Source: a virus. From it: a DNA stretch of 64,000 nucleotides. The notes beneath the pieces were generated by a model. The model searched no databases, was not told the origin of the DNA, and saw only the letters and a list, made by a program, of their open reading frames with translations. The stretch spans positions 64,001-128,000 of the IMG/VR virus record IMGVR_UViG_3300018916_000001. The stretch is one strand, 5' to 3'. The translations under genes were made by a program, and so were the position numbers. Shown one piece after another: positions 6,466-54,220 of this stretch (positions are counted from its first letter, which is position 1; every line of letters begins with the position of its first letter).

Positions 6466-6915
6466 CTAGACTCCTAACTTAAGGCTTGCTATAAGAGAAA
6501 CTACTCCACAAGACCAAGAAAATAGAGCAAAGTCAACTACTTGCATTAAGTCTAGATGAAGAGTATTGAAATCCAAAATAAATAGGAGATATACAATATA
6601 ACCTCCCCAACATCCCTTACAAAATGAACAAGAATTTAATTGATAGACAATATTATATAATCTCTCCCATATAGAGCAGTAATTATTTATCTCTATATCT
6701 TCTTTGTTATTAGGTAAGTAAATATATAAGTTATCTTTCTTTATAGTCTTTTTATTAGAAATTTTATTTAGTTCTACAGCTAACTCTTTCTTCTCTCTTA
6801 GTTTATTTAATAGAAGATTCCAAAAATATCTTGGAACTTTATAATCAAATAAGACTATTCTTAAAGTTACAGCATATATATAAAGTAATGCTATATTAGT
6901 TACATAATCATTCAT
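6466..6915 (-). CDS. Membrane protein with a CxxC-G-W motif (DUF1360-like)
   Basis: Three hydrophobic segments and CSFCKGCW. Confidence 0.55.
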   Translation of the reverse strand: MNDYVTNIALLYIYAVTLRIVLFDYKVPRYFWNLLLNKLREKKELAVELNKISNKKTIKKDNLYIYLPNNKEDIEINNYCSIWERLYNIVYQLNSCSFCKGCWGGYIVYLLFILDFNTLHLDLMQVVDFALFSWSCGVVSLIASLKLGV

Positions 6916-6929
6916 ACAAATTAAACTCC

Positions 6930-7391
6930 ATGAAGAATTTCAAAGTCAAAGTACAATCATATAATAGCGAAAAAGATACATATGAAGTAGAGAAAGTATA
7001 TATCATACAAAGAGTTGTTAGATCTGAGTTAGATACATTAATTGAATTACATAAACAAATACTAATTCGTTTCTTAGATACTGATGCAAATATGGGAGAG
7101 TTTATTAGAGATAACGAATCTTGGGAATTAATGAGAACGTTAGCTAAAAATCTAAATGTCTTAGGTCAAAAAGATAAAGGATTTGATATAGAAGAAATAG
7201 CTGATGATTTAGAACAACTCTGCCAAATCTTTATTAGTCAAAGTATGAGTGATTCTGGTGAATTAGATTTAGAAGAAGGATGGAAACCTTCATTATTATC
7301 TAGTCTACATAAACTAGATTTTCCTATGTACATGAGAGAAGCAATAAAAAAGTATCAGGAGAAGAGAGAGAGTCAGATAGAAAAAAGTTAA
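6930..7391 (+). CDS. Tail assembly chaperone (gpG-like)
   Basis: Located between the tail tube and tape measure; ends GAA AAA AGT TAA over a slippery A-run. Confidence 0.7.
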   Translation: MKNFKVKVQSYNSEKDTYEVEKVYIIQRVVRSELDTLIELHKQILIRFLDTDANMGEFIRDNESWELMRTLAKNLNVLGQKDKGFDIEEIADDLEQLCQIFISQSMSDSGELDLEEGWKPSLLSSLHKLDFPMYMREAIKKYQEKRESQIEKS

Positions 7392-7703: not shown

Positions 7704-10700
7704 ATGGATACTGCTAGCAATATTAAATTTAATGTTGAGGGAGATGATAAGTTCTCTCAATTTCTAGAGAAAACTCAAAAATCATTTAAAGAACTTAATG
7801 AGAAATCACTTAGGCTATTTAATACTGGTCTTAGAGAAGGTTCTAGAGGTTTAAAAGATATAACAAAAGAAATTAGAACTAAGTCTAGTGTAGTAGAGAA
7901 GTTAATAGCGGATTATGGTAAAGCTACTAACTCTACTAATACTTGGACAGCTTCTCTTGGTAAATTAGCTAAAACTGCTACATTGCTAGGTGGAGCTATG
8001 ACAGCTTTAAATATTGCTAGCATTGGTGGTGGTATCGCAAGTATTGTAGGTACTGGTATTAATGGTGTAATAGACTCACTTACTAAAGTTAATACTGGTA
8101 TAGATGTTATGGCTGCTAGTGGATTTGACGGGACTCCACTAATGAATTCATTTCAAGAGATAACTGCTGTATTAACCGGAAATCAAGCTGCTATTGATGC
8201 TTTCACTTCTAGATCAACTGCTGCATTTAACTCGTTTGAGCAGAAATTAAATGAAGTTAACATTGTATTTGGCTTATCAAAAGAAAGATTAGCTGAATAT
8301 GGCGATGCTCTACAAAATGGTTTAGAAAAGAATTTAAAGAATAGTGTCTCTTCTCTTACTGCTTTAAATGCTGCGTATCAAGCTGCTTCTGCTGGATTTA
8401 CAGAATTTCAACAAAACCAAGATGTAGTTAATCTAGCAATCAAAGCGAATAAAGCTGCTCCGGGAAGTGACTTATTCCAGATTGGTGGAGCTATTGGTAA
8501 AGGTGCAGGTATCCTAGAAACTAAGGACATTGCAGAATTAGAAGAAGTTACTGCTAAATGGTTAGCTACGGAACAACAAGGTCTAACTACTGTAGGAGAA
8601 ATGACTGAGTATATTAGCGATATGTACTCATCTCTTAAAAACGCAGGTATTGGTACTAAAAATCTAGTTAATGAAACTCAAGGTTTAGTAGTAGCTTTTA
8701 CTAAGTTAGGTGGTAAAGTTACTGATATCTCTACTGAAATGCAAGCGTTCTCTAGAAATACTATTGGTAAAACTCCTGAAGCAACGAAAGCTTTAGAAGG
8801 ATTGGTAGACGCACAAGGAAAAGCTATTACTCTTAATCAAGAATATTTTGGTAAGAAAGGTGTAGTTCAAGGTATTGTAGATTTTGCTGAAGCCGTAGGA
8901 TATAACACTGAGAAGATTAAGGAAGTATATAACGAGACTAATGCTTTCAACTTTGTAATGAAGGTATTAGCTCAAAATGGTAATCTTGCTAAAAAATCTA
9001 TTGAAGATATTAGTAAAGTTACGTCTGAAAATTTAACTGAAGCTTTTGATTCTGCTACTTCTTCATCTCAAGCAAAAATGGAGCAAATTACTAATGCTTA
9101 TGATGAAATAATGATCTCTTTCGGTAAAGTATTCCAAGAAAGAAGTAGAGAAGGTGTTAAATCTATTGAGTGGTATAAAGAAGCTTTAGTAACTTTTAAA
9201 GAGCCATTAGTAGAAATAGCAGGAAGAATGGTAACTTTTTTTGATAATGTAGGAAAATTTACTGGAGTTCTTAGTTCAGTTGCTAAAATGCTCACTGGTA
9301 TAGCAGGAACTATTATTAGCTATAGAGCTTTTGACTTAATTTTTAAAGGACTAACTGATGGATTTAAAGATGTAAAAAAAGAAGGTTCTGTAATTAAAGA
9401 GCTTTATACATCTAATCAAGGTTTATTTGCTATAGGAAAGCAGTTATTAGGATTGGATCAACAGAAACTATTAAGTCAAAATAGAATCAATGAAGCAATT
9501 AAAAAGTCTAGTGAATTAGAACAAGGACTAACTAACTCTATAGGAAAAACTAATAGTGAAAGATTAACTTCTATTGCTACAGTTAAAAATGAGATAGACG
9601 CAATAGTTTCTAGAGATGAGTCTATAATTAAAGGTCAGCAAAAAGTAACTAAAGCTGAAGAACTACTAAATAAGAAAGTAGATAGTAGAAATACAGTACA
9701 ATCCGAAGTAAACTCTACTCAAAAAGGTTTAGCTAATCTAAAAACTCTTAAAGCTGATATTGACAATACTTTTAAAAATAATGTAGAGAATATTGAGCGT
9801 TCCAAAAAACTTAGTGAAATCGCTGCTCAAGAAGCTTTAATTAAACAAGGAAATATTGGAAAACAAGAAAGACAACAATTAAAAGAGCTTAACGCAGAAA
9901 AACTAAGACTTCAAAATACTTATAACACAACTACATTAGACCAATTAGCTTCATTAGAAAAACAAAAAGATATTCTAAGAAATAAAGCTAAGAAATCTGA
10001 TAGAGATTATGCTGCCTTAGACAATATATATAAGAGAGAAGATCAGTTATTAGATAGAGAAAGAACAAAAGATCGTACTCCTCTAACTAAAGAACAAAGA
10101 ACTGAGCTTAACAATACTCGTAAAGATATTGCTACTAAGATACAGCAAGAAGAATTAATTCTCTTAACTCAAAGACAAAAGTTACAAGAAGCTAATAATG
10201 TAGTAGATAAAGAAACTCAAAAACTAAATCAAGTTAGAGCTGACCAACAAGAAAAACTTAATCGAGTTACTAAAGCTACTACTGAATTAGCAGTTCTACA
10301 ACAAGATTTAAATACTAAAAAAACTAATCTAGATAAAATTGATTTAGCTGTTACAGGACAACGTGATAAGCTATACTCAATTCAAAATAATCTAAGAAAA
10401 GAACAAGCTACTTTAGATAAAATTCGTAATAAGGATAGCGCAGAATATCAACAGCAATTAAAAAAAGTTGTATCTTTACAAGAACAAGAAGCTACTCAAC
10501 AAACCGTATTTCAAAAAGCTAGAACTACCCAACTTACTGCACAACAAGCTGTTAACAAAGCAGAAATAGAAAGTAAAACTAAACTTAGACAATTAACTAG
10601 AGAACAAGGTTTAGCGGAAGGCTCGCTTATTGAATTAAGAACTCGTTCAGGTTCAGTAGCTCTTAAAAATACAGCTTTTAATAGAGATTTAGTGAGTTCT

Positions 10701-13700: not shown

Positions 13701-16700
13701 GGGTCTAATACAAAGGACTTAGAGAGAACTAGACAACTAAAAGAGAAAGAAATCCAATTATCTATTGATTCTATCAACTCTCAAATTGCTTTGACTGAAA
13801 AAGGTAGTAAGGAACGATTAGCTTTAGAACAACAGTTAATTCTAGAAGTTAATAAGTTACAAAAAACTCAGCTAGATAATCAAAAAGAAAGATTAGAACA
13901 ATCTCTAGAAGAAAGAAGAAAGAAGTTAGAAGCTAGACAAATTGATTTAGAAAAGACTTCTATTAGAGGAACTACTGAACAAGATATTGAAGCTACTAGA
14001 AAACTAAAAGAAGAAGAGATTACTTCTACTATTGAATCTCTCAAACAAAGGTCTTCCTTATATAAAGAAGGTAGTAAAGAAAGAATTGCTCTTGAACAAG
14101 AGATAGCTAAAGAAACTCTTAAGTTAGATAAACAAGTCTATGAAAATCAAAAGTCTCGATTACAAACTCAAATAGACAATAAGAAGAAAGCTTTTAGAGA
14201 TACACAACTACAATTAGAGAAGTTAATGGTGCTTGGAACTTCTACTGAAGATTCTAAAAAAGTTCGTGCATCTAAGGAAGAAGAAATTCAAATTACTATT
14301 GAAAGTATCAAGAAAGAAATTAAATTAACTAAAGAAGGAAGCACTCAAAGAAAAGATTTAGAACGTTCATTGAGAGAAGAACTCTTGAAGTTAGATAAAC
14401 AAAGAGTAGCTAATAAAAGAGAATTGATAGATGAAGAAATATCTCTAGAAAAAACTAAGATTACTAAAATTCAGTCTTTATTGGAACGTTCAACTATTGG
14501 AGGAACTTTTGAAAAAGATTTAGAGAAGATTCGTGAGTTAAAAGTAAAAGAAACTCAAATAGTAATTCAATCTATACAAAAACAGTTAGCTACTTATAAG
14601 TTAGGTAGTAAAGAAAGATTATCTCTAGAAGCTCAGTTAACTCAAGAGATTACTAAATTACAAAAGATTCAGTTTGGTAATAAAGAAGAGAAACTAAAAT
14701 CTCAGTTGGAAGACGCCAAGAATAAGTTAGATAAGCAAATTGCATTGAAAGAGTCTAGCTTAATTGATGGTGCAACAGAACGAGAACTGAAAATAGTAGA
14801 AGAAGCAAAGATAAAAGAAACTCAACTTACTATTGATTCTATCAAGAAACAAATAAATCTCTATAAGGTAGGAAGCAAAGAACGTCTTGCTCTAGAAGCT
14901 AATCTACAGAGAGAAATCAATAATCTAAGAAAACAAACTTTAGATAAAGAGAAAAACTTAATTCAGAATGCTCTAGAGTTTAAGAAAACTAAGATTGATA
15001 TTACGAATATTGACTTAGAAAAGAAACTTCTTAGAGGAGATATTGATAGAGAAAGTTTTGAAGATAAGTTAACTGCTTCATCTCAAAAAGTTAATCTCTT
15101 ACAACAAGACGCATTTACCAAGCAACTTAAACTATATCAAAAAGGTAGTAAAGAATATTTAGAGATACTTAAAAATCTATCTCAATTACAAGTTGACTAT
15201 CAAAAATCTGTAGTAGATAAAGCTATTAGAGATATTGATAGAATTACTAAATCTCAGAATAATTCGATAGAAGCACAAAAAATCTCTATTACTAATCAAT
15301 TAAGTTCTAGTGATTCACTTACTAAAGAACTTCAAGAGCAAATTAAACTTGAAGATTCTAGAAGTTCTGTGATTAAAGCTACCTCAGATTATCAAGTAGG
15401 ACTATTAGAATTAACTAAAAGATCTACAGGAGATATAGAGAAGAGAGCAAAGATTGACGTACAAATTGCTGAACTAAAACAGAAAGCTCTATTAGAAAGT
15501 CAAGAGATTGAGATTAATAGTATAAAGAACAATACGTTAATAAATGAAGCTGCGTTAGAAAGAGAGAAAATTCAAATATCTCTTAATAGATTGGAGTTAG
15601 ACAGGAATAAAATTCAAACTGAAGCAGAACTAAGAAAAGCTAGATTAAATAAGTTAGATCAAGCCTCTATTAATGCACTTCAGTTACAGTTAGATTCTAT
15701 TAATAATCAATATGACGCTCTTGGTAGAAGTGAAAACTCAATCTTTACTCAAATTGCTAATCAAGCTGAGATTAGTAGAAATCAGTTAGAAGTGATTAGA
15801 CAACAACAAGATTTAGCTCAAAAGAATTCTGTGTTAGACGTTGAACAAGCTAAGCAAAACGTTATTATTGCAGGTTACGAAAAGCAGCTATCTCAACTAA
15901 AAGCTAAAGGTGATTTAATACAAGCTAATGCAAATAAAGAAAAAGTTATAGGAGATTTATTAACTAAAGCTTATGACACTCAAATTGCTTTACTAAATAG
16001 TAGAAAAGAATTGATGGACTCAACTTTAAGTTCTATTGATTCTCTATATAATATTGAACAATCAATGGCAAAGTCTGACTTAACTAAAGATAAATTAGCT
16101 AAAGAACAAGCTAAAGATAAATTGAGTTATCTAGAATTCCAACAAAGAGTTGAGAATGAAAGTTTTAATTTAGAAAAAGCTAAGAATCGGATAGTTAGAG
16201 AAAGACAGAAAGTTGAGTTAACAATCGCTGAGTTAAATGCTAAACAAGCTCTTGCAATGTCTAAAGCTGAAGAAGCTAGAACTAAGGCCCGTAAAGATGC
16301 TACTAATGAAGAGAAGTTAGCAGCTAAATTAGCGGTAGAAGCAGCAGAACAGGGTATTATTGCAGCTAAAGCTAATAGAGATATTAATCTAGAACTTATA
16401 AAAATAGAAGAACAATCAGAAAAGAATAAAGAAATAATCAATGCTCGTAATCAAAGGAACCAAAGACTACAAGCTGAACAATCTCTTGCATCTTTAACTT
16501 CTAATACTACTGATGATAGAGAAGTGAGAGGAAAAGCACAAAAATATAGAGAACTAGATGAAAGGACTATTAGTAGTACATTAAAGTCTACTTCTAATTT
16601 AAACATAGAGAATATACTTAAAGAGTTCACTAATGATATGAAGAACAGAAAACCTATAGAAAATAGTATTAATAAAGTTAATAACACTGATACACCTAAA

Positions 16701-19713: not shown

Positions 19714-22398
19714 ATGAAATCTAAACTCCCCCTTAATAATATAGTTAATTTAAATAACGAGCTATCTCTAGAACAAATTAATAAACTTAGTAATAGTCCT
19801 GGTACATTTCTTTTTAATCCTATAACTAAGAAAGTTCTTTTATGTTGTAAGGTAAACACTAAGATTACTAATGATCCTCTACCGCTAAAAATATTAGGAG
19901 ATAAAGAGATATTTATTAGTAACCAGATTGAGCTACCACCTTTTATAGTAAAGCATAAGTTAGTTGGAGGGTTTACTCTTACAAGAAGTTTTGAGAATCA
20001 TCCTTCTATTGGATTTAATCTTATATGTGATAGAGAAGAAATTGATGATGTAAGAGCAAAGTTTAGAGATAGAGAACAGAAATATATCTTCTATAATATT
20101 CCTTTCCGTTTAGTTAATTATTCAGAAAATATAGCTCATAGGTCTATTAATCCATTAGGTAAATACGAAATTAATCTTTCTTTTGAAGGTTGGTACTCAA
20201 AGCTAATTAATACTCCACTATTCGTGAAAAAGAGAGGAGATAGCTTAGTTAATAGTAAAAACTTTGAAGCTCCAGAATGTAGAATAGATGGAAATAAAAA
20301 TACTAATACTGAATTAGCTAACTCTCTTACTAAACCAAATGAATTAGTTATTCCTTTAACTTCTTTTGCTAATAGATTAGGTTTTAATTATTTAGGATAT
20401 AACTTCTTGTGTAATTATCAGAAACCTATATCTCCTGATTTAACTACTACATTTGCTAGTGAGTTAGATAGTAGAAAGAGAACTAAAGGGTTATATACAC
20501 TATTCTCTTCAGATGAAGGTGTCAAAACTATTAAATGGGCTAGACCTGCAACTTATAAGATAAAAGAGAATAAAACAATTAGTGATCTTAGCTATTCTGA
20601 TAATTTAAGTGAGTTGGGTTATAAACCTAGTGAATTAACTTGGAATAAGACAGATGAAGAACCTTTAGATAATGCACAAGAAGATACATTTCAAAATACT
20701 ATTCCTTCTTGGTTACAACTCAATATAAGAGTTACTGAAACTATTAGTGACCCGGATAACGCAACTACCCCTCCAAATGATGAAGGTCTTATCCGTACAA
20801 TGGATCTTAATTATGATGCTTCTGGTAAAGTAAAAATTAAGACTTTTACTAAAAGGGAAGGTACAACCGTCATCTGGGAGAAAGTAGAAACTTGGGGATT
20901 TATGTACGTCTCCAAAGATATTGTAATAGATAGGAATGGAGAAAAAGTAATTGAAGCGTCTCCTAGTAATTATTGGGGATTAACCGAATCTCAAGAAACT
21001 ACTCATTTATATGATTCAACTACTGGTTACTATTTAGGAAATAAGATTAATGGATGGAAAATGTGTCGTTTCAAGCAAGAATCTTCAACTGAAACAGCTA
21101 AATTAGAAATAGAAAAAGCTGGATTAAGCGACCCATTATCTAAGTTATATGAGTCAGATGAAGTAGTTAGAGGAGAGAAAATATATGAATTAAATCAAAT
21201 AATGGATTGTTATAGATTTAGAACTGTTCCAATTATTGGTGGTACTCAATATATACTTAGACAATTTAGAGACTACTATCAAGACGCTAATGCTTCTACT
21301 CCTAACATTCCCTATCAAGTATGTACTTCCAACGGTCAACTAATAACTAAATATGTAAGAGATCCAACTTGGGTAGAACCAATGTTCATTGGAGAAGAAT
21401 ACACTTATTACTCTTGCTATACTCGCACTGAAGATCCTTCTAATCTAGCTTTAAGAAGAGAGTTTAGAGATTCTCCACCTGAAACTCCAACTGATAATCC
21501 TGTATATAACCCCCCATTATCTACGGGTAGAGAAACTGAAATATATAAGAAAGTATTAATACACAGAAGTAAATCTACTATACAAGAAGAAGGATTAGGA
21601 TTTACGTCTACCGGAAGCTCAGTTAAAGATAATTTTATTGGAGATGATAAGGAAGGTTTAGAAGATAGATATGAAACACATATTACTGAAAGATCAGCTC
21701 AAGATAGTAATTTCAGAAATGCTTCTACCATTATCCGAATAGAAGAAAGCTCGGGTAGACCAGGAGAACCAGGAAGAAAACAATTGCCTTTTGTACCTAA
21801 AACTGAAGAGAGTATAAGAGATAACTCTGACTTCTATTACCAAATGATAGAAACTAAAAGAGAAGATAAGATTAAACAACCTAAAGATAACTATAAATAT
21901 CTTTTAGTTACTCAAGGTTATAACGTTAATGACCCAATTCAAGGATCAGTTTCTTACAATACAAAGCACAAATCTGAAGCGTTTTTAGGTGCTTGTACTG
22001 ATTTAGAAATTGATGATATGAATAGTAATTGTTCTATCTCTTTCACTACTTTATTTAGACCAGAGATTATAGAAGGAAGCAAACTCAATTTTAGTTATTC
22101 TTGGGATTCTTGGAAAACTAGAGTGATTAGTAATAGTTCAACTGTAACAATAATAGGAAACGTAGAGTTTGATGATGGTTCAGTACGGATAGAAGTTACT
22201 GGTTCTACTACTCTTAGCTTAGGGATAGATAGTAGTTTAGGTAGCTTAACGTCTTTACAGAAAATCAAACTACCCAAAGAAACTGTCCCAACTACTAATA
22301 CTCAAAATCCTAGTGAGTCTAGCGTATTTAATATGTACACTAGAGGAAAAGAACTTGGAAAAATTACCTATGGCTTTGGAAGTAGATATAGTGGATAG
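19714..22398 (+). CDS. Putative tail tip/hub protein
   Basis: 894 aa downstream of the tape measure and Dit; the C-terminal SFTT.FRPEI.EG...RV......TTLSLG fits the end of gp27-like hub proteins. Confidence 0.55.
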   Translation: MKSKLPLNNIVNLNNELSLEQINKLSNSPGTFLFNPITKKVLLCCKVNTKITNDPLPLKILGDKEIFISNQIELPPFIVKHKLVGGFTLTRSFENHPSIGFNLICDREEIDDVRAKFRDREQKYIFYNIPFRLVNYSENIAHRSINPLGKYEINLSFEGWYSKLINTPLFVKKRGDSLVNSKNFEAPECRIDGNKNTNTELANSLTKPNELVIPLTSFANRLGFNYLGYNFLCNYQKPISPDLTTTFASELDSRKRTKGLYTLFSSDEGVKTIKWARPATYKIKENKTISDLSYSDNLSELGYKPSELTWNKTDEEPLDNAQEDTFQNTIPSWLQLNIRVTETISDPDNATTPPNDEGLIRTMDLNYDASGKVKIKTFTKREGTTVIWEKVETWGFMYVSKDIVIDRNGEKVIEASPSNYWGLTESQETTHLYDSTTGYYLGNKINGWKMCRFKQESSTETAKLEIEKAGLSDPLSKLYESDEVVRGEKIYELNQIMDCYRFRTVPIIGGTQYILRQFRDYYQDANASTPNIPYQVCTSNGQLITKYVRDPTWVEPMFIGEEYTYYSCYTRTEDPSNLALRREFRDSPPETPTDNPVYNPPLSTGRETEIYKKVLIHRSKSTIQEEGLGFTSTGSSVKDNFIGDDKEGLEDRYETHITERSAQDSNFRNASTIIRIEESSGRPGEPGRKQLPFVPKTEESIRDNSDFYYQMIETKREDKIKQPKDNYKYLLVTQGYNVNDPIQGSVSYNTKHKSEAFLGACTDLEIDDMNSNCSISFTTLFRPEIIEGSKLNFSYSWDSWKTRVISNSSTVTIIGNVEFDDGSVRIEVTGSTTLSLGIDSSLGSLTSLQKIKLPKETVPTTNTQNPSESSVFNMYTRGKELGKITYGFGSRYSG

Positions 22399-23591: not shown

Positions 23592-25287
23592 TATAGTAAT
23601 CCATTAGCTTTCATTAATAACCTCATGAGATATTGAGCTTTTCTATCAGTAATACCAGCTCGATTAAGTCCTGCTGTTACTTCTGTAGGTGCGCCAAGAA
23701 ATGTATCATAGATGTCTTTTCCATCAGTAGCAAAATCTTTAGCCTTCTTAGTAATGTCTTGAATCTCAGGTTCCATTACTTTATTTATTCGTTTAGCTAA
23801 CTCTCTTCTAGATAAAGTTCTATAATCTACTCCTTCTCCTTTAGTCATTAATTCATCGAAATTATCGTGAACTCTTTTAAGTCTTTCACTATAACTCTTA
23901 GGATTATTAGGTTTAAAATTACCAGACCTAACTTCATCTAGCAATCTCTTTATAATTTTAGGTTTAACTACACGAGCATAGATAGCAGATTCAGTACCTT
24001 TAGCTAATCCCCTGCCAGTAGCTTTAATCGCTCCTCTCCTACCTGATATTGCTTGAAGTGCTTTTTCCCATTCCTCAGCTTTTACTTCAATGCCAAGTTT
24101 CTCTGCTTCAGGGTCTTTAGCTAATTTATTTATTCGTGCAATAGCTAATCCCATCGGACTTTTACGTTCGGCTATTGAAGAAATAGCTAAGTCTTTAATC
24201 TTATCTTTTTCACTTACTACTTCTTTTACTTTATCGATACCAGTTATTTTTCTCCTAGATGCGTTAGGTACAATGTCATCTAGTAAAATATCACTTTCTC
24301 TTTTGAGTCGAGTTTTAACTTTACGAACTGCTTTATCTACTGGTTTATTTAATACAGCTTCAAAAGATGTTTTTTCTGGAGGTCTACCTAAACCACTTCT
24401 GCGAGTAGGATTTCTTAAAGCTTTCTCAATTTGAAGATTAACTTTCATCCCTAATGGGAGAGGCTCATATATATTCTTGTAATCACGTAAACCTTGTTGA
24501 GCTGGTGTTGTCTCTATTACTGGAATATTTACTCCTGCTTTAGAATTCGACTTAGGATTTTTAACTACGTCTTCTAATAAATAGTTATCTTGTGGTCTTT
24601 TTATTGTTTTTTTTTAGCAGGTGCAAGCAATTTGATTATTTTCTCTTCAGCTTTAGGTACTACCATATCTGGATTATTTATCTTAGTCTTAATAGGAGTA
24701 GTCCAGGGATCAGGAATATTATCTTTTCTACGAATTCTGTTTTGAGTTACTGGTTTTTTTACTGTCATCTTAGAACCTCTCACTCCTGATTTACTAGGAA
24801 TTGGAGTAGTCCAAGGATCTGGTAAAGGGTCAAAATTTTTCTTTATTTCTGTTGGTTTTTCAACTACTTTAGAAACTTCTGCTACAGGTTTAGTGTTTTC
24901 TACTACCACATCTTTAGGTTTTGTCGAAGTTGGAGTAGAAGCGGTTTTAGATTTTGGTGCAGAAGGAACTTTAAATTTTTCTAATGCTTCCTTATTAAAA
25001 GGATTTCCATCTCCAGGGCGAGGTGTAAGGTTTAGATTATCTACATCATCTACCTTAACCACCATACTCTTCTTTTTCTTAATTACCGATTTAAGATTAA
25101 TACCTTTCTTCTTTAAGAGTATTGCCGCTCCTAAACCAATGACCGCAGTAGTCCCTAACCCAATACCTATATTCCTATTTCGATCTTCATTTTTTTTCCT
25201 AAAGAAATCTTTAATTACAGTGACTTGAAATCCTTTTTTACCTTTAACTAATCTGTTGTGTCCTTTTACCTTATCTTTATTAAACAT
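23591..25287 (-). CDS. Basic protein of about 565 aa, split into two ORFs by a -1 shift at an A9 run (24607-24615)
   Basis: ORF 24601-25287 ends GCT AAA AAA AAA CAA TAA. The -1 frame opens exactly at the A-run and runs without a stop into ORF 23591-24448. N-terminal VKGHNR basic motif, TM helix, PDPWTTPI twice. Confidence 0.7.
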
Positions 25288-31599: not shown

Positions 31600-34500
31600 A
31601 TGAATGACGACTTAATAGTTCAAAAGATTCTTAAGCTATTAGAGAACAACGCTGCTTTTATTGGTTATGCCCTTAACGGTGGAATTGGAACTAAGATAAA
31701 CGTCAGAAATACTGAGACAGGAAAAACTATTCAAGCTCTTAGTATTAATGTAGATTCTAGCGGGGAAGTTTTAGTTGTTAAAGATTCCGATGACGGTCAG
31801 TATAAAGCAGTTACATTCAAAGCAGCAGAACAAGTAACTGAAAGAATCATTCAGGTAAGAAAGACTAAGCCTGTGGATGACAAAAAAGTTATTGAATATA
31901 CAGATTCAGATATTGAAGTGTTTTATCTCTTTATCAAATTAATAGATACTGGTAGTCCTGTTTCTACTCAACTAACTTCTACTTGGATTAGAAAAGGTAG
32001 CTCATGTACTCAATTTGTTGGAGCGTATGAGAGATGTAATTATGCTGCTAGAGATACTATTGAAGGAACTTCTTATATGGGTTTGCCTTATAAACCTTAC
32101 TCAAGTTTAAATGATTGTCTTAACGACGATTTAGGCAGAGATGCTAAAACTCCTCATGGGACAGGGGATGAGCAAGGTTTAGGAGCAGGATTTAAAATAT
32201 ACTCTACTAGAATGACTTCGGATGCAGAACAAGCATTACAAGCTGCTTTAATCTCTCATGACAATTACTACGGAACTAATTTTAGAAAACTATTTGGTTA
32301 TGGAAGTATTTTAGAATGTTCTGGAGGAATGTTTGTTGTAGGATGGGAATCTGGATATGCAAGCCCAACACCAGAACAACAAGCTTTAGGTCAGTCAGGT
32401 ACCTATTTTACTCGCTGCGAATTTAGTTATTTGCCTGGATACACAAATGATTGTACTATTGCACAACAAAATGCTAGATATTGCGATACAAGAGGGTTTA
32501 TTAATAGTAAAGCTCCTCTTTTTGGTCAAGAAGAACCTGGACAACCTAGTTTAAATCAAGTTGACAATACTTGGGGACATCAATATGGTTGGGTAGATTT
32601 GTCTTACGACTTTATGTATAAGAGACACTTTATACCTTCCTATGTTAATGGAGCTGCTGCACAAGGTAGCTTTTTAATCTTAGAAGTAAATGATGACCAA
32701 ACACCTACTATTCCAGAAGGTTATTTCCCTTGGACTCCTGGTTGTCCTAGTAACTTAGGAGAAGGAGGCCCATATAATGGAAGTGGAGGTAACAGGTTTC
32801 CAGATGGCCCACCAAAACTAAAAAAAAGAGATATGAAACTCTCTACTCATAAAGCTGAAATTTGGTTGGGAAGCAGTAAAAAAGAAGAAGCAATTAAACT
32901 ATATGAGTTAGGTGCAAGTGACTTATTTTCTGGGATGTACAACGCCTTTATTTTAGCAGCTAACGAAACTCAAGTAGATATAGAAAATAGACTAAGAAGA
33001 AACTTTGCAATTAGTGAAGAAGACCAAGCAAAACATATTAAATTTTATGAAAACTGCAATAAAAACATTATTGATTTAAGAATTGACCCTAGAGTTTGGG
33101 TTTACATTTTAAATAACGTTCCTCTAAGTAACTATGTTACTCCTAGTATAGACGGAATTTTTACAGACCCTAGAAACCGTTCTTTACAACAAATCGTAGA
33201 TAACTTATATAACAGAACTATTAATTTAACAGTAGTAGATAATAAAACACAAGTTGTACATTTAAAACTAGGACTAGAACCAAAAAGTGTTCTTAGTAAT
33301 ACTGATTGTAAAGGAACAAAGTCAGGTAATCTCCCTATAAGTGCTAACGATTTAACACCTAATCAAAGTTGGGAATATAGGAAATACGTAACTATAAAAA
33401 TAAAAAACTGGCAAATAGAATCTACTTCTAACACTTTAGATACTACTTTAATCCCAAATACAACGTGGAATAAACAGTATATAGAAAGGAAATTTTTTAC
33501 TTCTTTTGGGAGCCTTATTTACAATGCTAGTGGAGGAGTTGGTACTGGTAATAGCGAGAGAGATGTTGCAAATAATATATTGCTTAGACCTAATAACGAT
33601 ATTTCTTTTATAGGCTTAACTTCTGGAAACAACTATGAACAATACAATTACAGTCAAGCTAATAATCCTACAAGTAGTAGCGTTTTTACCCCTATGATTT
33701 TCTTTGTTAATAGCAGCACTTTTTTAGCTAAAAATACTTCATCTGGGGATAGTCAACGACGAGTTTTACTATCTACTTCTAGTTGGTGGGCTTTATGGGA
33801 CAGAAGTATCTTAGACTCTACTAAAAAGAGATTAAGTTCTGTAGTAGGGTATGAGAGAAATATTTATCAAATACTTACAAGTTATGGGTTAGACCCTAAT
33901 TTAAACTACACAAGTATTAGTAATAACAGTCATATTAGTAATAGAACTTACTTTGATTATGTTCTTAACAGACCTAAACTATTAGTACCTTCTAATATTA
34001 AAAGTGTAAGAAATAAGCTAGTACCAGTAACTAATGATAATAGCTTTACAGCTTTATCTACTAGAAAAAATACTCTTAATGCTTACGGATTAAATTTCTA
34101 CTATACTTATCATCTTACTTCTTGGTCACAGTATCGTTTAAGTGGTAGATTAGATAATATTACGGTTCCTAACTTAGGTGTACTGTCTCCTTTTTATGGA
34201 AATTCTAATTTAAATACTCACAATACGAGAGAAAGTGTTTTGGCTATAAATACTGATTCTGGTAGTTATGTGTCCACTCGACGATTAGATACTAATCAAT
34301 GGTTTAATAATTTTTGGGCGCAATTAATATTTGACGGTTCTATTAAAGTAGATGTGGATTCTTATAAAAATGTAGAATTTAATCCTCCTACTAATCCAAC
34401 ACGATATATTAAATACGCTACTAATCAACTTAATTCTAATAATGAGTATAGCTTTGTCTTAGATAAAGTACAAAATTTAGAAACCGTCCTTACTCCCGGA

Positions 34501-34708: not shown

Positions 34709-34780
34709 CGCACAGAGCTAAGATTCGCACTTAGGATTCTAGTTTTGGAGACTAGCGTGTTCCTACTACACTATTCTGGC
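34709..34780 (-). tRNA. trnW: tRNA-Trp(CCA) with atypical acceptor stem and T loop
   Basis: CTAGT CT-CCA-AA ACTAG anticodon arm; CTAAG TGCGAAT CTTAG T arm; the acceptor GCCAGAA/CTCTGTGC needs a bulge or terminal mismatches. Confidence 0.75.
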
Positions 34781-39854: not shown

Positions 39855-40541
39855 CTAATGAATACTCCTCTCATTTTCTTTCTCCAGTAATTCTTCTAAC
39901 CAAGACTTAAATTCTTCTTTACTAAGTTCATCAAAAAACTCTCTAACATCTTTAAATTCTCTAAGCTCAGATTTAGGTGTATTGTGAAATTCTTCTATAA
40001 TTTCTCTCAAATGAGCTTGAAATTTAAAGTCATTATTTTCAACTTCATTTAACTTCTCATCAATTTCTTGTTCATTGTTTAAATCTTGTACTCCAATACT
40101 TAAGAGATAATTCTTCCACTTCTCTTCTTCTACTTGTTCTTTATAGAGTTTAGCTTTTACTATTCTCTCCGCCATTTCTCTATTTCTTAGCTGATCAGCT
40201 TCTTCTCCACAAATAGAAGAGAGTCCAGAAGGTATATGAGTTACTTGTGCGTAATACTCAACTCTAGCTGTTTTCTGGTCTTTACCTTCTTGAGTATCTA
40301 TAAACTTACATTTAAGTTCTTTTGGGTCTATATAGAAATCATCAGGTTCTTCGTATATAAGATTTTCATACTCTTGACTTTTCTCCAAAATAAGTTTGTA
40401 GATGTTAGAATCTTTACTTATTAAATAGATTATCTCTACTCCATTATCAGTAATTAGCTCTTGTACTGGTCTAAAATTATAGTCTGTTGAAAGATTAGGA
40501 TTTTTACTACTGAAACATTCTACAAATATAGTTTCTATCAT
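39855..40541 (-). CDS. Protein with a degenerate class I release-factor (RF-1) domain lacking GGQ
   Basis: IDPKELK.....EGKDQ......AQVTHIPSGL...C.E..DQLRNRE.A...VKAKL aligns to RF domain 3 (I...DLRI...SG.GGQ.VN....AVRITH.PTG....CQ.ERSQ..N...A...L.ARL). Confidence 0.7.
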   Translation of the reverse strand: MIETIFVECFSSKNPNLSTDYNFRPVQELITDNGVEIIYLISKDSNIYKLILEKSQEYENLIYEEPDDFYIDPKELKCKFIDTQEGKDQKTARVEYYAQVTHIPSGLSSICGEEADQLRNREMAERIVKAKLYKEQVEEEKWKNYLLSIGVQDLNNEQEIDEKLNEVENNDFKFQAHLREIIEEFHNTPKSELREFKDVREFFDELSKEEFKSWLEELLEKENERSIH

Positions 40542-41073: not shown

Positions 41074-41172
41074 TGTCCTACTCACGAATCGAACGTGAAT
41101 ACTACCTCATATAAGAGGCTGCTCTGACCCAAAGGACTGTGTTTATCAGATCTTCCGTTGAGCTAGTAGGAC
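41074..41172 (-). tRNA. tRNA-like RNA (probably derived from Ile-UAU) with a ~27-nt D-loop insert and a 6-nt anticodon loop
   Basis: GTCCTAC/GTAGGAC acceptor, U8A9, GCTC/GAGC D stem around a 35-nt loop, GCCTC TTATAT GAGGT, TCACG TTCGATT CGTGA, A73. Confidence 0.75.
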
Positions 41173-41179
41173 TTACAAA

Positions 41180-41365
41180 CTAATTAGTCTTTTGTATCCT
41201 CACTATTTTATTCTTTTTCTCTTCCTCTTTACGTTTTTCGTAATCACTTATGTGTTCCCCAGTCCACGACTCGTATAGTTCTTCTCTAATTAAAAGACCT
41301 CCAGTTACACAAGCAGCATTATAAGCAATAAAAAATCCAGTACCAATTATACTCATAGGTTCCAT
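41180..41365 (-). CDS. Small membrane protein
   Basis: N-terminal hydrophobic helix, charged tail, GAGG RBS. Confidence 0.55.
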   Translation of the reverse strand: MEPMSIIGTGFFIAYNAACVTGGLLIREELYESWTGEHISDYEKRKEEEKKNKIVRIQKTN

Positions 41366-41395
41366 AATCTTTTTACCTCTAGTTTTATTTTTCTT

Positions 41396-41665
41396 CTATA
41401 AATCATACATTAACTCTTCAACTCTTTCGTAACAATCATCGTAATACTTAGCTTCTCTTTCATCTACTACTTCTTCTATCTTTTCAATAACTACTCTAAA
41501 TCTTGTCCCTGTAGAAAAATCTCTAAGAAGTTTTTCAAGTTCTAGATACTCCTTTTCATTTAAAGTGAAAGCGTAAGAGATAAGTAGAGATAATACAGAA
41601 TAATTATCTGTTAACTCTTTATCTTTTATATCATCCCACCATTTTATAGTATTCAATTCAATCAT
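41396..41665 (-). CDS. Hypothetical protein
   Basis: 89-aa ORF. Confidence 0.55.
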   Translation of the reverse strand: MIELNTIKWWDDIKDKELTDNYSVLSLLISYAFTLNEKEYLELEKLLRDFSTGTRFRVVIEKIEEVVDEREAKYYDDCYERVEELMYDL

Positions 41666-53470: not shown

Positions 53471-54220
53471 TTAATTAATTAGTGATTCGAGAAACTTACC
53501 ATAATCTTCTTTCATTGGTAAATCTTCGTCTACCTTCAACCTTCGCCTAGTAGTTAATACTTCTTCTTGAGTTATTGGATTATATCCAGTCTTGTCATAA
53601 GTCTCCCAATAAATACCTGTACCTCTTCTCTGCCAGCTAGGAACATCGTTGAAGTTAATTCCATTACTAAATAGAAGCTTGTTCTTAAATTCTCTAGTTT
53701 GCTTATCTAATATACTTGTAGCTTTTCTAGCTGAATGACCTAAATTTCTCAATGTCCAATAGCTATAACCATTTAACGCACATCTTGCAGCATCAGCTTG
53801 TCTCCATAGAAAATAATCTATTACTTGTGATTTATTAGCTAGAGATATAAGTCTACTATCAAAACTAACTATTGAACCAGAAAGATGAGTGAAATTAGAA
53901 CTTGCAATACTAGCCGAGATACTTACTAACTTCTCTACTGACCTATCAAATAAATTCCAATTAAGAGGAAATAAAATAGATATCTCATCTGACTCAGTAA
54001 AGGCATACAAGCCATCTAAATCGGTTATTAAAGCTTTTGTAGTTTCAATCATCCAAGAATGGAAAGTTAAGTCAAATGGTTTATCAAATTTAGAGTTATA
54101 TGTAAAATTACTAAATGAACGTCCATCTACTCTAATTACTGTATAAGTCTCAGGTAACAATCTTAAGTTGTGGAAATACTCAAGTGAGCGCATCTTAGAC
54201 TCAAATTGGTCATTATTCAT
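53471..54220 (-). CDS. thg1: tRNA(His) guanylyltransferase Thg1-like 3'-5' polymerase
   Basis: IRVDGRSFS.FT, F.KPFD, Y.ESDEIS, FDSR, YF.WRQ.DA.R, GINFN..P.WQRRG. Confidence 0.95.
   Translation of the reverse strand: MNNDQFESKMRSLEYFHNLRLLPETYTVIRVDGRSFSNFTYNSKFDKPFDLTFHSWMIETTKALITDLDGLYAFTESDEISILFPLNWNLFDRSVEKLVSISASIASSNFTHLSGSIVSFDSRLISLANKSQVIDYFLWRQADAARCALNGYSYWTLRNLGHSARKATSILDKQTREFKNKLLFSNGINFNDVPSWQRRGTGIYWETYDKTGYNPITQEEVLTTRRRLKVDEDLPMKEDYGKFLESLIN

Follow-up and report, generated by a model that had tools for sequence, protein, structure and literature searches.

A tRNA-shaped gene between two small open reading frames

The stretch of DNA analysed here (hereafter the window) is 64,000 nucleotides (nt) long and spans bases 64001-128000 of an IMG/VR virus record. 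This record, 151,199 bp in length, has direct terminal repeats and a G+C content of ~31% and represents a large phage of soil-crust (biocrust) origin. On the minus strand of the window, reading from 41172 to 41074, lies a tRNA-shaped element flanked by open reading frames (ORFs) of 61 and 89 amino acids (aa), named o61 and o89a (Table 1); position p of the element equals window coordinate 41173-p. An earlier note on this DNA had described the element as a tRNA with perfect stems, a 35-nt D-loop and a 6-nt anticodon loop, and the layout that we read from the minus-strand sequence agrees with this. All 21 stem pairs of the canonical cloverleaf form, and every universally conserved core base is found (U8, A14, the A15-U48 pair, G18, G19, A21, G53, T54, T55, C56, G57, A58 and C61). 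Two loops depart from the canonical form: the anticodon loop, for which seven nucleotides are expected (Y32-U33-NNN-R37-N38), has 6 nt here and in each of three further variants described below, and the D-loop, for which ~7-11 nt are expected, has 35 nt in the window element and 20 nt in the variant L019. Taking 27 nt out of the D-loop leaves AACGG+TCA, that is, 8 nt, as the note had also pointed out.

The minimum-energy structure predicted by RNAfold is a cloverleaf with an additional hairpin within the D-loop, and it is the same in all four variants. The fold energy is -35.5 kcal/mol, compared with -21.5 +/- 2.9 kcal/mol for shuffled sequences (z -4.83), and none of 200 shuffles was as stable. 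A helix between TCTGAT in the insert and GTCAGA, which according to the note would compete with the D stem, does exist, but it is 4-6 kcal/mol worse than the cloverleaf, and L019 is unable to form it, so that it is not conserved. For the same two reasons we rejected a conserved switch built on TCTGAT and RTCAGA.

Standard tools pass over the element. Neither the window element nor the short-insert variant L019 gave a match to the Rfam tRNA family RF00005, even at E<=10, and ARAGORN made no call on the element at default settings. With a lowered threshold, ARAGORN took the sequence without its insert for a tRNA whose anticodon has two bases, and after one base had been added at position 32 of the insert-free element it returned tRNA-Ile(tat). 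An alternative ARAGORN parse, a tRNA-Gln(ttg) with an 11-nt intron in which the insert serves as the anticodon arm, was discarded: its D stem would have only 2 bp, and the parse disappears in L019. We also discarded the possibility that the insert is a repeat, a mobile element or an antisense seed, because the genome holds no second copy or complement of it at up to 4-6 mismatches. Scanning for sigma-70 promoters and terminators gave matches at background level only; the T arm together with the U-run was flagged as terminator-like and is not a canonical terminator. To look for a parent or host tRNA, 185,579 genomes were scanned with a signature made of the anticodon arm, variable loop and T stem, allowing a 6- or 7-nt loop; there were zero matches, and blastn against 50,697 cultured phage genomes gave none either. 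No paper on phage tRNAs with a D-loop arm or with 6-nt anticodon loops was found in the searchable literature.

Table 1. Parts of the tRNA-shaped element, its flanking ORFs and the smaller tRNA-like elements of the phage (window coordinates unless another record is named)
Feature	Position	Strand	Remarks
Whole tRNA-shaped gene, 99 nt	41074..41172	-	five helices and a 6-nt anticodon loop; from sequence, RNAfold and four-variant alignment
Acceptor stem, 5' strand GTCCTAC	41166..41172	-	pairs with 41075-41081 (GTAGGAC); 7/7 Watson-Crick
U8, A9	between acceptor stem and D stem	-	from sequence
D stem GCTC/GAGC, 4 bp	flanks D-loop	-	from sequence
D-loop, 35 nt	41125..41159	-	AACGG + AA + hairpin + A; A14, R15, Y16, G18 and G19 kept
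Extra D-loop hairpin (fifth arm)	41126..41152	-	base GAUC/GGUC or GAAG/CUUY; apical 15 nt dispensable
A26	directly after 3' strand of D stem	-	from sequence
Anticodon arm	41104..41119	-	5-bp stem GCCTC/GAGGT with one G.U; 6-nt loop TTATAT at 41109-41114
Variable loop AGTAT, 5 nt	between anticodon arm and T arm	-	from sequence
T arm TCACG-TTCGATT-CGTGA	41082..41098	-	canonical T-loop
Acceptor 3' strand GTAGGAC and discriminator A73	41074..41081	-	CCA not encoded; TTTTT comes next
U-rich 3' trailer TTTTTATAGGAGTTAGATAA	41054..41073	-	contains Shine-Dalgarno site of next gene
Upstream ORF o61, 61 aa	41180..41365	-	stops 7 nt before the element
Downstream ORF o89a, 89 aa	40784..41053	-	starts 20 nt after the element
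Mini elements, genome G000 (outside the window)	15818-15863, 22213-22267, 24048-24096 (= L109 9549-9597), 24350-24411, 24818-24891		
Mini copies in related phages	G003 32410-32459 (L105 1501-1549); G002 10511-10558 (L106 1503-1547)		

Conservation of the element in four variants

Besides the window element, three variants from biocrust or metagenome assemblies were available: L003 (IMG/VR 3300000095_000002, on the same contig as L020 and L021), L016 (ENA ERZ27286129) and L019 (JGI metagenome contig LCrCPGB2_1000095). These assemblies share the 6-nt anticodon loop and the D-loop insert, and in a public biocrust metagenome run, probably the source sample, the word depth of the Logan contigs over the locus is ~450, with zero differences, anticodon loop included; the sequence is therefore not an artefact of assembly. 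The note had named an assembly artefact or random decay among the outcomes that would undo its reading and had asked for the reads at 41109-41114 to be inspected, where no variation is seen at this depth. In the same run, a minor strain at depth ~4 carries an L016-type variant. The public runs listed for the locus include none of RNA, and the contigs compared were of DNA throughout. A fifth copy is likely to adjoin P0008, which is 78% identical to the upstream 61-aa ORF. A search anchored on thyX, the gene upstream of the element in three of the variants, recovered 80 loci at ~50% identity with the element in none of them, and homologues of the ORF downstream of the element in L019 lie in contexts unrelated to it.

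The anticodon loop reads TTATAT or TTATGT, with 6 nt in all four variants, and the D-loop insert occupies one and the same site throughout, with lengths of 27, 28, 27 and, in L019, 12 nt, so that it is not a fixed unit. The D-loop of L019, AAUGGAA-GAUC(UUCG)GGUC-A, amounts to a canonical D-loop of 8 nt into which a hairpin, 4 bp long and capped by UUCG, is set between 20a and A21, and the longer variants have the same hairpin base plus 15 apical nucleotides. Two registers of this base, GAUC/GGUC and GAAG/CUUY, lie 0.4 kcal/mol apart in L019; in the three longer variants they differ by 2.5-5 kcal/mol, GAAG/CUUY being the more stable. L016 carries an extra insert of 26 nt in the T-loop between positions 57 and 61, the exact site being ambiguous owing to an ATT repeat; placed at 60/61, it leaves the five-base T-loop motif unbroken. 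Nine substitutions distinguish the variants, four of them in stems (C3U, C4U, a C to U in the T stem and a U to C in the hairpin), and all four keep pairing: C3 and C4 become U in L016, yielding G.U pairs in the acceptor stem, and the C to U in the T arm of L019, which also has G57A, gives a wobble pair. Within the D-loop hairpin, one-sided changes likewise leave the bases paired (L003 turns a U.G into U-A, L019 a G.U into G-C), and over 28 pairs and four sequences 109 of 109 pair cells are standard. Positions R57 and Y16 hold their purine and pyrimidine class, respectively. The would-be A37 is G in two of the four variants, and discriminator 73 is A in three and G in L019. The three indel events all fall at permissive loop sites, namely the variable region of the D-loop and T-loop positions 57-61.

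The element is 92-97% identical between variants, and it is the best-conserved stretch in five of the six pairwise comparisons. The downstream o89a shows ~88% nucleotide identity between variants versus 96-97% for the element, for thyX, just upstream in L003, L016 and L019, the figure is 72-81% (55-62% at third codon positions), and other shared stretches of at least 200 nt between L019 and the window's genome are 73-84% identical. At the rates of the flanks, the binomial probability of the 3-7 differences observed in the element ranges from 1e-6 to 9e-3. As a benchmark, the genuine tRNA-Gly(UCC) of the phage shares 99% identity with its counterpart in a distant relative, as against 77% for the flanks. 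The trailer TTTTTATAGGAGTTAGATAA has been kept along with the element in all variants. Gene order around it has not: the window reads o89b, o61, element, o89a; L003 reads thyX, o61, element, o89a; L016 has thyX, a 121-aa ORF, the element and o89a; and L019 has thyX, the element, a 147-aa DUF8296 ORF and a truncated o89a. The 61-aa upstream ORF thus accompanies the element only in the window and L003. Because the element out-conserves these rearranged flanks and the substitutions in its stems keep pairing, neutral decay is unlikely, which bears out the note's view that the intact stems speak against simple decay.

As regards the neighbourhood itself, thyX is found just upstream of the element region at 4686-5393 in L003, 622-1398 in L016 and 5954-6736 in L019, and at 253-1008 in the close relative L015; it does not occur at the corresponding site of the window (41366-41657). 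The L015 thyX allele is only 38-42% identical in protein sequence to the other three, the neighbouring genes of L015 being 84-93% identical, and the thyX site is a hot spot of gene replacement. In L019, the DUF8296 (PF26948) gene lies at 6851-7294, between the element and the o89a homologue, and the latter (7305-7380) is shortened to ~24 codons.

A proposed tRNA mimic and competing explanations

The structure of the element, its conservation and the pattern of changes that it tolerates are directly established. To account for them we favour, tentatively, a functional and selected gene for a tRNA-shaped RNA that is no longer an ordinary decoder, that is, a mimic set free by tRNA-processing enzymes; a tRNA-derived regulatory RNA or a decoy is the class that we judge most plausible. 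The element, lying inside a minus-strand operon, is probably co-transcribed with the neighbouring ORFs, because only 7 nt separate it from the ORF before and 20 nt from the ORF after. Judging by its anatomy, RNase P would cleave at G1, RNase Z would cleave between the purine discriminator and the U-rich trailer, and the host CCA-adding enzyme would append CCA. What would result is a ~100-nt, L-shaped RNA whose fifth arm projects from the variable part of the D-loop on the elbow side, a normal L-shape being predicted because every core base is kept, R15-Y48, Psi55 and R57 among them. With an anticodon loop that is one base short, the RNA should not decode normally and would be expected to act off the ribosome. 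From its genomic context, its likeliest role may be that of a bait or competitor for a putative tRNA-targeting host factor in a phage-host conflict over tRNAs, and this role is the most attractive because the phage carries tRNA-repair and anti-tRNase genes (see the last section). A side effect of excision would be that the polycistronic operon transcript is cut.

A more specific form of this proposal is an uncleavable decoy, in which the tRNA body and the anticodon stem would bind a host anticodon nuclease or tRNA-modifying toxin, the 6-nt loop would block catalysis and the D-loop arm would keep the RNA away from synthetases, EF-Tu and the ribosome. That phage tRNAs evade anticodon nucleases via changes in the anticodon loop is an established idea (PMC10264068). 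The decoy would act beside the RNA ligase, Thg1-like enzyme and colicin-immunity-like protein of the phage; we regard this form as distinctly unlikely.

Phage tRNAs are now regarded as weapons against host defences that deplete tRNAs, and nearly all of the counter-defence tRNAs known to us from phages are ordinary decoders with small anticodon-loop changes. The element differs from such decoders in being conserved and yet missed by standard finders, in having a fifth arm and in its probable inability to decode as usual. If it is indeed a decoy or a specialised off-ribosome mimic, it would represent a new type of phage counter-defence, and tRNA annotation pipelines would be systematically overlooking a class of functional RNAs in soil viromes. 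A more modest reading would be that hairpins can be accommodated within the tRNA fold at D-loop position 20 and T-loop positions 57-61.

Several observations weigh against a selected mimic. The window and L003 share a block that is 96-100% identical, upstream ORF included, and since such a block suggests mosaic exchange that adds to the apparent conservation, recent exchange of modules rather than selection could explain part of it. L015 lacks the element at the syntenic site, where thyX abuts o89a, and relatives of ~60% protein identity (L004, L005, L013, L014 and L017) are without it as well; given that it is missing from all six, it is a dispensable accessory gene. Finally, the note had proposed to look for covariation in relatives: all four stem changes keep pairing, but among these four close variants no change within the element is double-sided, so that covariation proper is not demonstrated.

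The main rival to a mimic is that the tRNA shape is a processing signal only, or t-element, which serves RNase P and RNase Z cutting between the 61-aa and 89-aa ORFs and whose released RNA has no role. RNase P processing of the C4 RNA of phages P1 and P7 is a precedent, and the element resembles both C4 RNA and t-elements in lying between co-directional ORFs, with an acceptor stem and T arm that suit the two enzymes. Its close spacing to both neighbours would fit, as would the U-rich trailer with a Shine-Dalgarno site that travels together with the element, and five smaller tRNA-like elements of the phage (minis; see the last section) sit in similar gaps and are conserved with compensatory changes. 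Plant mitochondrial t-elements (PMC1920247) are a further precedent for processing signals. The same minis, however, show that an acceptor stem and a T arm suffice for the job. Unlike t-elements, the element keeps full D and anticodon arms under constraint, together with the tertiary core bases, at 92-97% identity, none of which is needed for processing; a signal for processing alone should drift or shrink there. For these reasons we consider a role in processing alone unlikely.

A genuine decoding tRNA, a tRNA-Ile(UAU) that reads AUA in spite of the extra arm and the short loop, seems improbable. The note had suggested this identity and had remarked that ATA codons are common, which they are (27.5 per 1000 codons, 36% of Ile codons); this makes tRNA-Ile(UAU) a plausible origin. 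No part of the tRNA core is missing, A73 is present in three of four variants, ARAGORN reads tRNA-Ile(tat) once a base is supplied at position 32, and the C31-G39 pair might open to give the loop C-U-UAU-A-U-G. Like canonical tRNAs (RF00005, e.g. the AUA-reading tRNA-Ile), the element has acceptor, D, anticodon and T stems of 7, 4, 5 and 5 bp, the core bases, a TTCGATT T-loop, a 5-nt variable loop and a purine discriminator, and like the phage's own tRNA-Gly it does not encode CCA. Unlike them, it has a D-loop of 20-36 nt with a hairpin, a 6-nt anticodon loop in every variant and polymorphic would-be positions 37 and 73, and it goes unscored by Rfam, in the short-insert variant as well, and by ARAGORN at default settings. 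The A/G alternation at 37 and 73, with G37 in two variants and a G discriminator in L019, argues against a fixed identity and weakens the case for an Ile(UAU) function at present, as distinct from an origin. tRNAs reading ANN codons are known to need t6A37. The 26-nt T-loop insert of L016 and the existence of close relatives with the same codon usage that do without the element also speak against a decoder.

Still less convincing is a dying tRNA pseudogene that has suffered a loop deletion and insertions and looks intact because the variants are young or a block was recently exchanged. Relative to a canonical tRNA there are two lesions, with a third in L016, and the absence of the element from several relatives, the nearly identical block common to the window and L003 and the lack of double-sided covariation would all suit this explanation. 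Neither a neutral rate nor decay of the stems was found, however: the element stands at 92-97% identity versus 72-88% for flanks that are, moreover, non-syntenic, a comparison to which mosaic exchange is a caveat, and it is the best-conserved stretch in all but one comparison. Pairing was preserved by each of the four stem changes, the three indel events all hit permissive loop sites, and the 6-nt loop and the hairpin base are common to all variants. We regard decay as a poor explanation.

The note had raised the possibility of a processed tRNA that loses a discrete 27-nt intron from the D-loop. In such a scheme an endonuclease would cut out this insert, along with the one in the T-loop of L016, and a ligase would join the ends into a 72-nt tRNA; we hold this to be very improbable. 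Such removal would yield a normal 8-nt D-loop, the phage encodes an RNA ligase, and each insert can, with its 5' part, base-pair to the exon that follows immediately on its 3' side. The element recalls archaeal tRNAs with non-canonical bulge-helix-bulge (BHB) introns in having short inserts in the D-loop (12-28 nt) and, in one variant, the T-loop of an otherwise perfect tRNA. Unlike in those tRNAs, BHB-like motifs occur at chance level (13-38 versus 17-39 in shuffles; strict motifs 0-2 versus 1.3-2.9), no BHB motif at the insert is common to all four variants, and neither the splicing endonuclease EndA (PF01974) nor RtcB (PF01139) is present in the 151-kb phage record. The insert drifts in length by internal indel (12 versus 27-28 nt) rather than by simple presence or absence, and the 6-nt anticodon loop would persist after splicing. 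In addition, the RF-1 domain, the RelA/SpoT-type HD hydrolases and the AGGAG ribosome-binding sites of the phage, together with a portal that is nearest to those of Pseudanabaena and Bacillus phages, point to a bacterial host. A group I intron was dismissed as well, the insert being 12-28 nt long, located in the D-loop and without an Rfam intron match; group I tRNA introns are self-splicing, exceed 200 nt and lie in the anticodon loop.

Seen as a mimic, the element is a variant of known phage tRNA-like RNAs. In 2014, Chen et al. reportedly described YrlA, a bacterial Y RNA (RF02553), as a tRNA-shaped non-coding RNA that occurs in bacteria and phages alongside RNA-repair genes. The element is likewise a tRNA-shaped non-coding RNA with RNA-repair genes in the same phage; unlike YrlA, in which a long Ro-binding stem is said to replace the anticodon arm, it retains that arm. 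A Y RNA-like mimic in the strict sense was set aside, as there is no Rfam match at E<=10 and no Ro/TROVE gene (PF05731) in the phage. Phage T4 RNA C and RNA D are small stable RNAs from a tRNA gene region whose role is unknown (PMC3014915). Like them, the element is a phage-encoded, probably non-decoding small RNA that is associated with tRNA genes and presumably with tRNA processing; unlike them, it keeps a complete cloverleaf and stands alone.

Other tRNA-like elements and tRNA-related genes of the phage

A simple search for a T arm plus an acceptor stem returned eight elements on the minus (coding) strand of the phage genome and one on the plus strand, compared with ~3.5 on both strands together (~1.7 per strand) in shuffled genomes. 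The minus-strand eight comprise the tRNA-Gly, an odd tRNA-Trp, the element studied here and five minis of 46-74 nt, which have a 'top-half' architecture consisting only of an acceptor stem, a T arm with a TTCGATT-type loop and a small hairpin. One mini is conserved in G002 and G003, two records of related phages, and five of its base pairs show compensatory changes on both sides, for which reason we consider it a genuine family of structured RNA. Each of the six stand-alone elements occupies a gap between co-directional ORFs, with the next ORF 14-55 nt downstream and the preceding one ending 7-26 nt upstream, except for the mini at 24818-24891 (780 nt). The element itself is alone between protein genes, ~6 kb from the phage's pair of adjacent tRNA-Trp and tRNA-Gly genes; these follow a 68-aa ORF and have no minus-strand ORF for ~2 kb downstream. 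On the evidence of the eight elements, their positions in gaps and the conserved mini, this phage lineage uses tRNA-like structures systematically.

Upstream of three of the tRNA-like elements, at a distance of 1-6 nt, stands the octamer AATTAGTT on the minus strand (window 41177-41184; genome 24418-24425 and 24098-24105), each time overlapping the stop of the upstream ORF (AAT TAG), and a variant octamer, ATTAGCTTGT, occurs 18 nt upstream of the tRNA-Trp. Because AATTAGTT is not enriched genome-wide (19 occurrences versus 12 expected), its association with tRNA-like elements is a local one. The tRNA-Trp(CCA)-like gene (window 34709-34780, minus strand; L008 1505-1567) scores 44.9 bits with Rfam, yet ARAGORN does not report it. 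The acceptor stem can pair only if a U is bulged out, and the copy of this gene in the relative G001 shows a compensatory change in the T stem, from CTAAG/CTTAG to CTAGG/CCTAG.

Several protein genes of the phage relate to tRNA or translation. A Thg1-like 3'-5' polymerase is encoded at 53471-54220 of the window, and a 228-aa ORF at 39855-40541 (minus strand) has an RF-1 (peptidyl-tRNA hydrolase) domain (PF00472; 36.6 bits versus a cut-off of 35). Elsewhere in the genome, a 194-aa protein with a colicin-immunity-like domain (PF09204, 63.6 bits; G000 146981-147565; L108 482-1066, minus strand) lies ~570 bp from a 379-aa RNA ligase (PF09414; G000 148139-149278; L108 1640-2779, minus strand). We take the PF09204 family to be founded on the protein that inhibits colicin D, an anticodon nuclease directed at tRNA-Arg, and by their domains the two proteins look like a pair of anti-tRNase and RNA-repair genes.

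An unrelated, GC-richer virus of 152 kb, G004 (IMGVR_UViG_3300022555_000010), contains a tRNA-like gene, 127 nt in length, at 77549-77675 (L104 1501-1627). Its acceptor stem, D arm and T arm are normal, its anticodon arm and variable loop are replaced by ~76 nt, and it scores 19.6 bits with the Infernal model R1.

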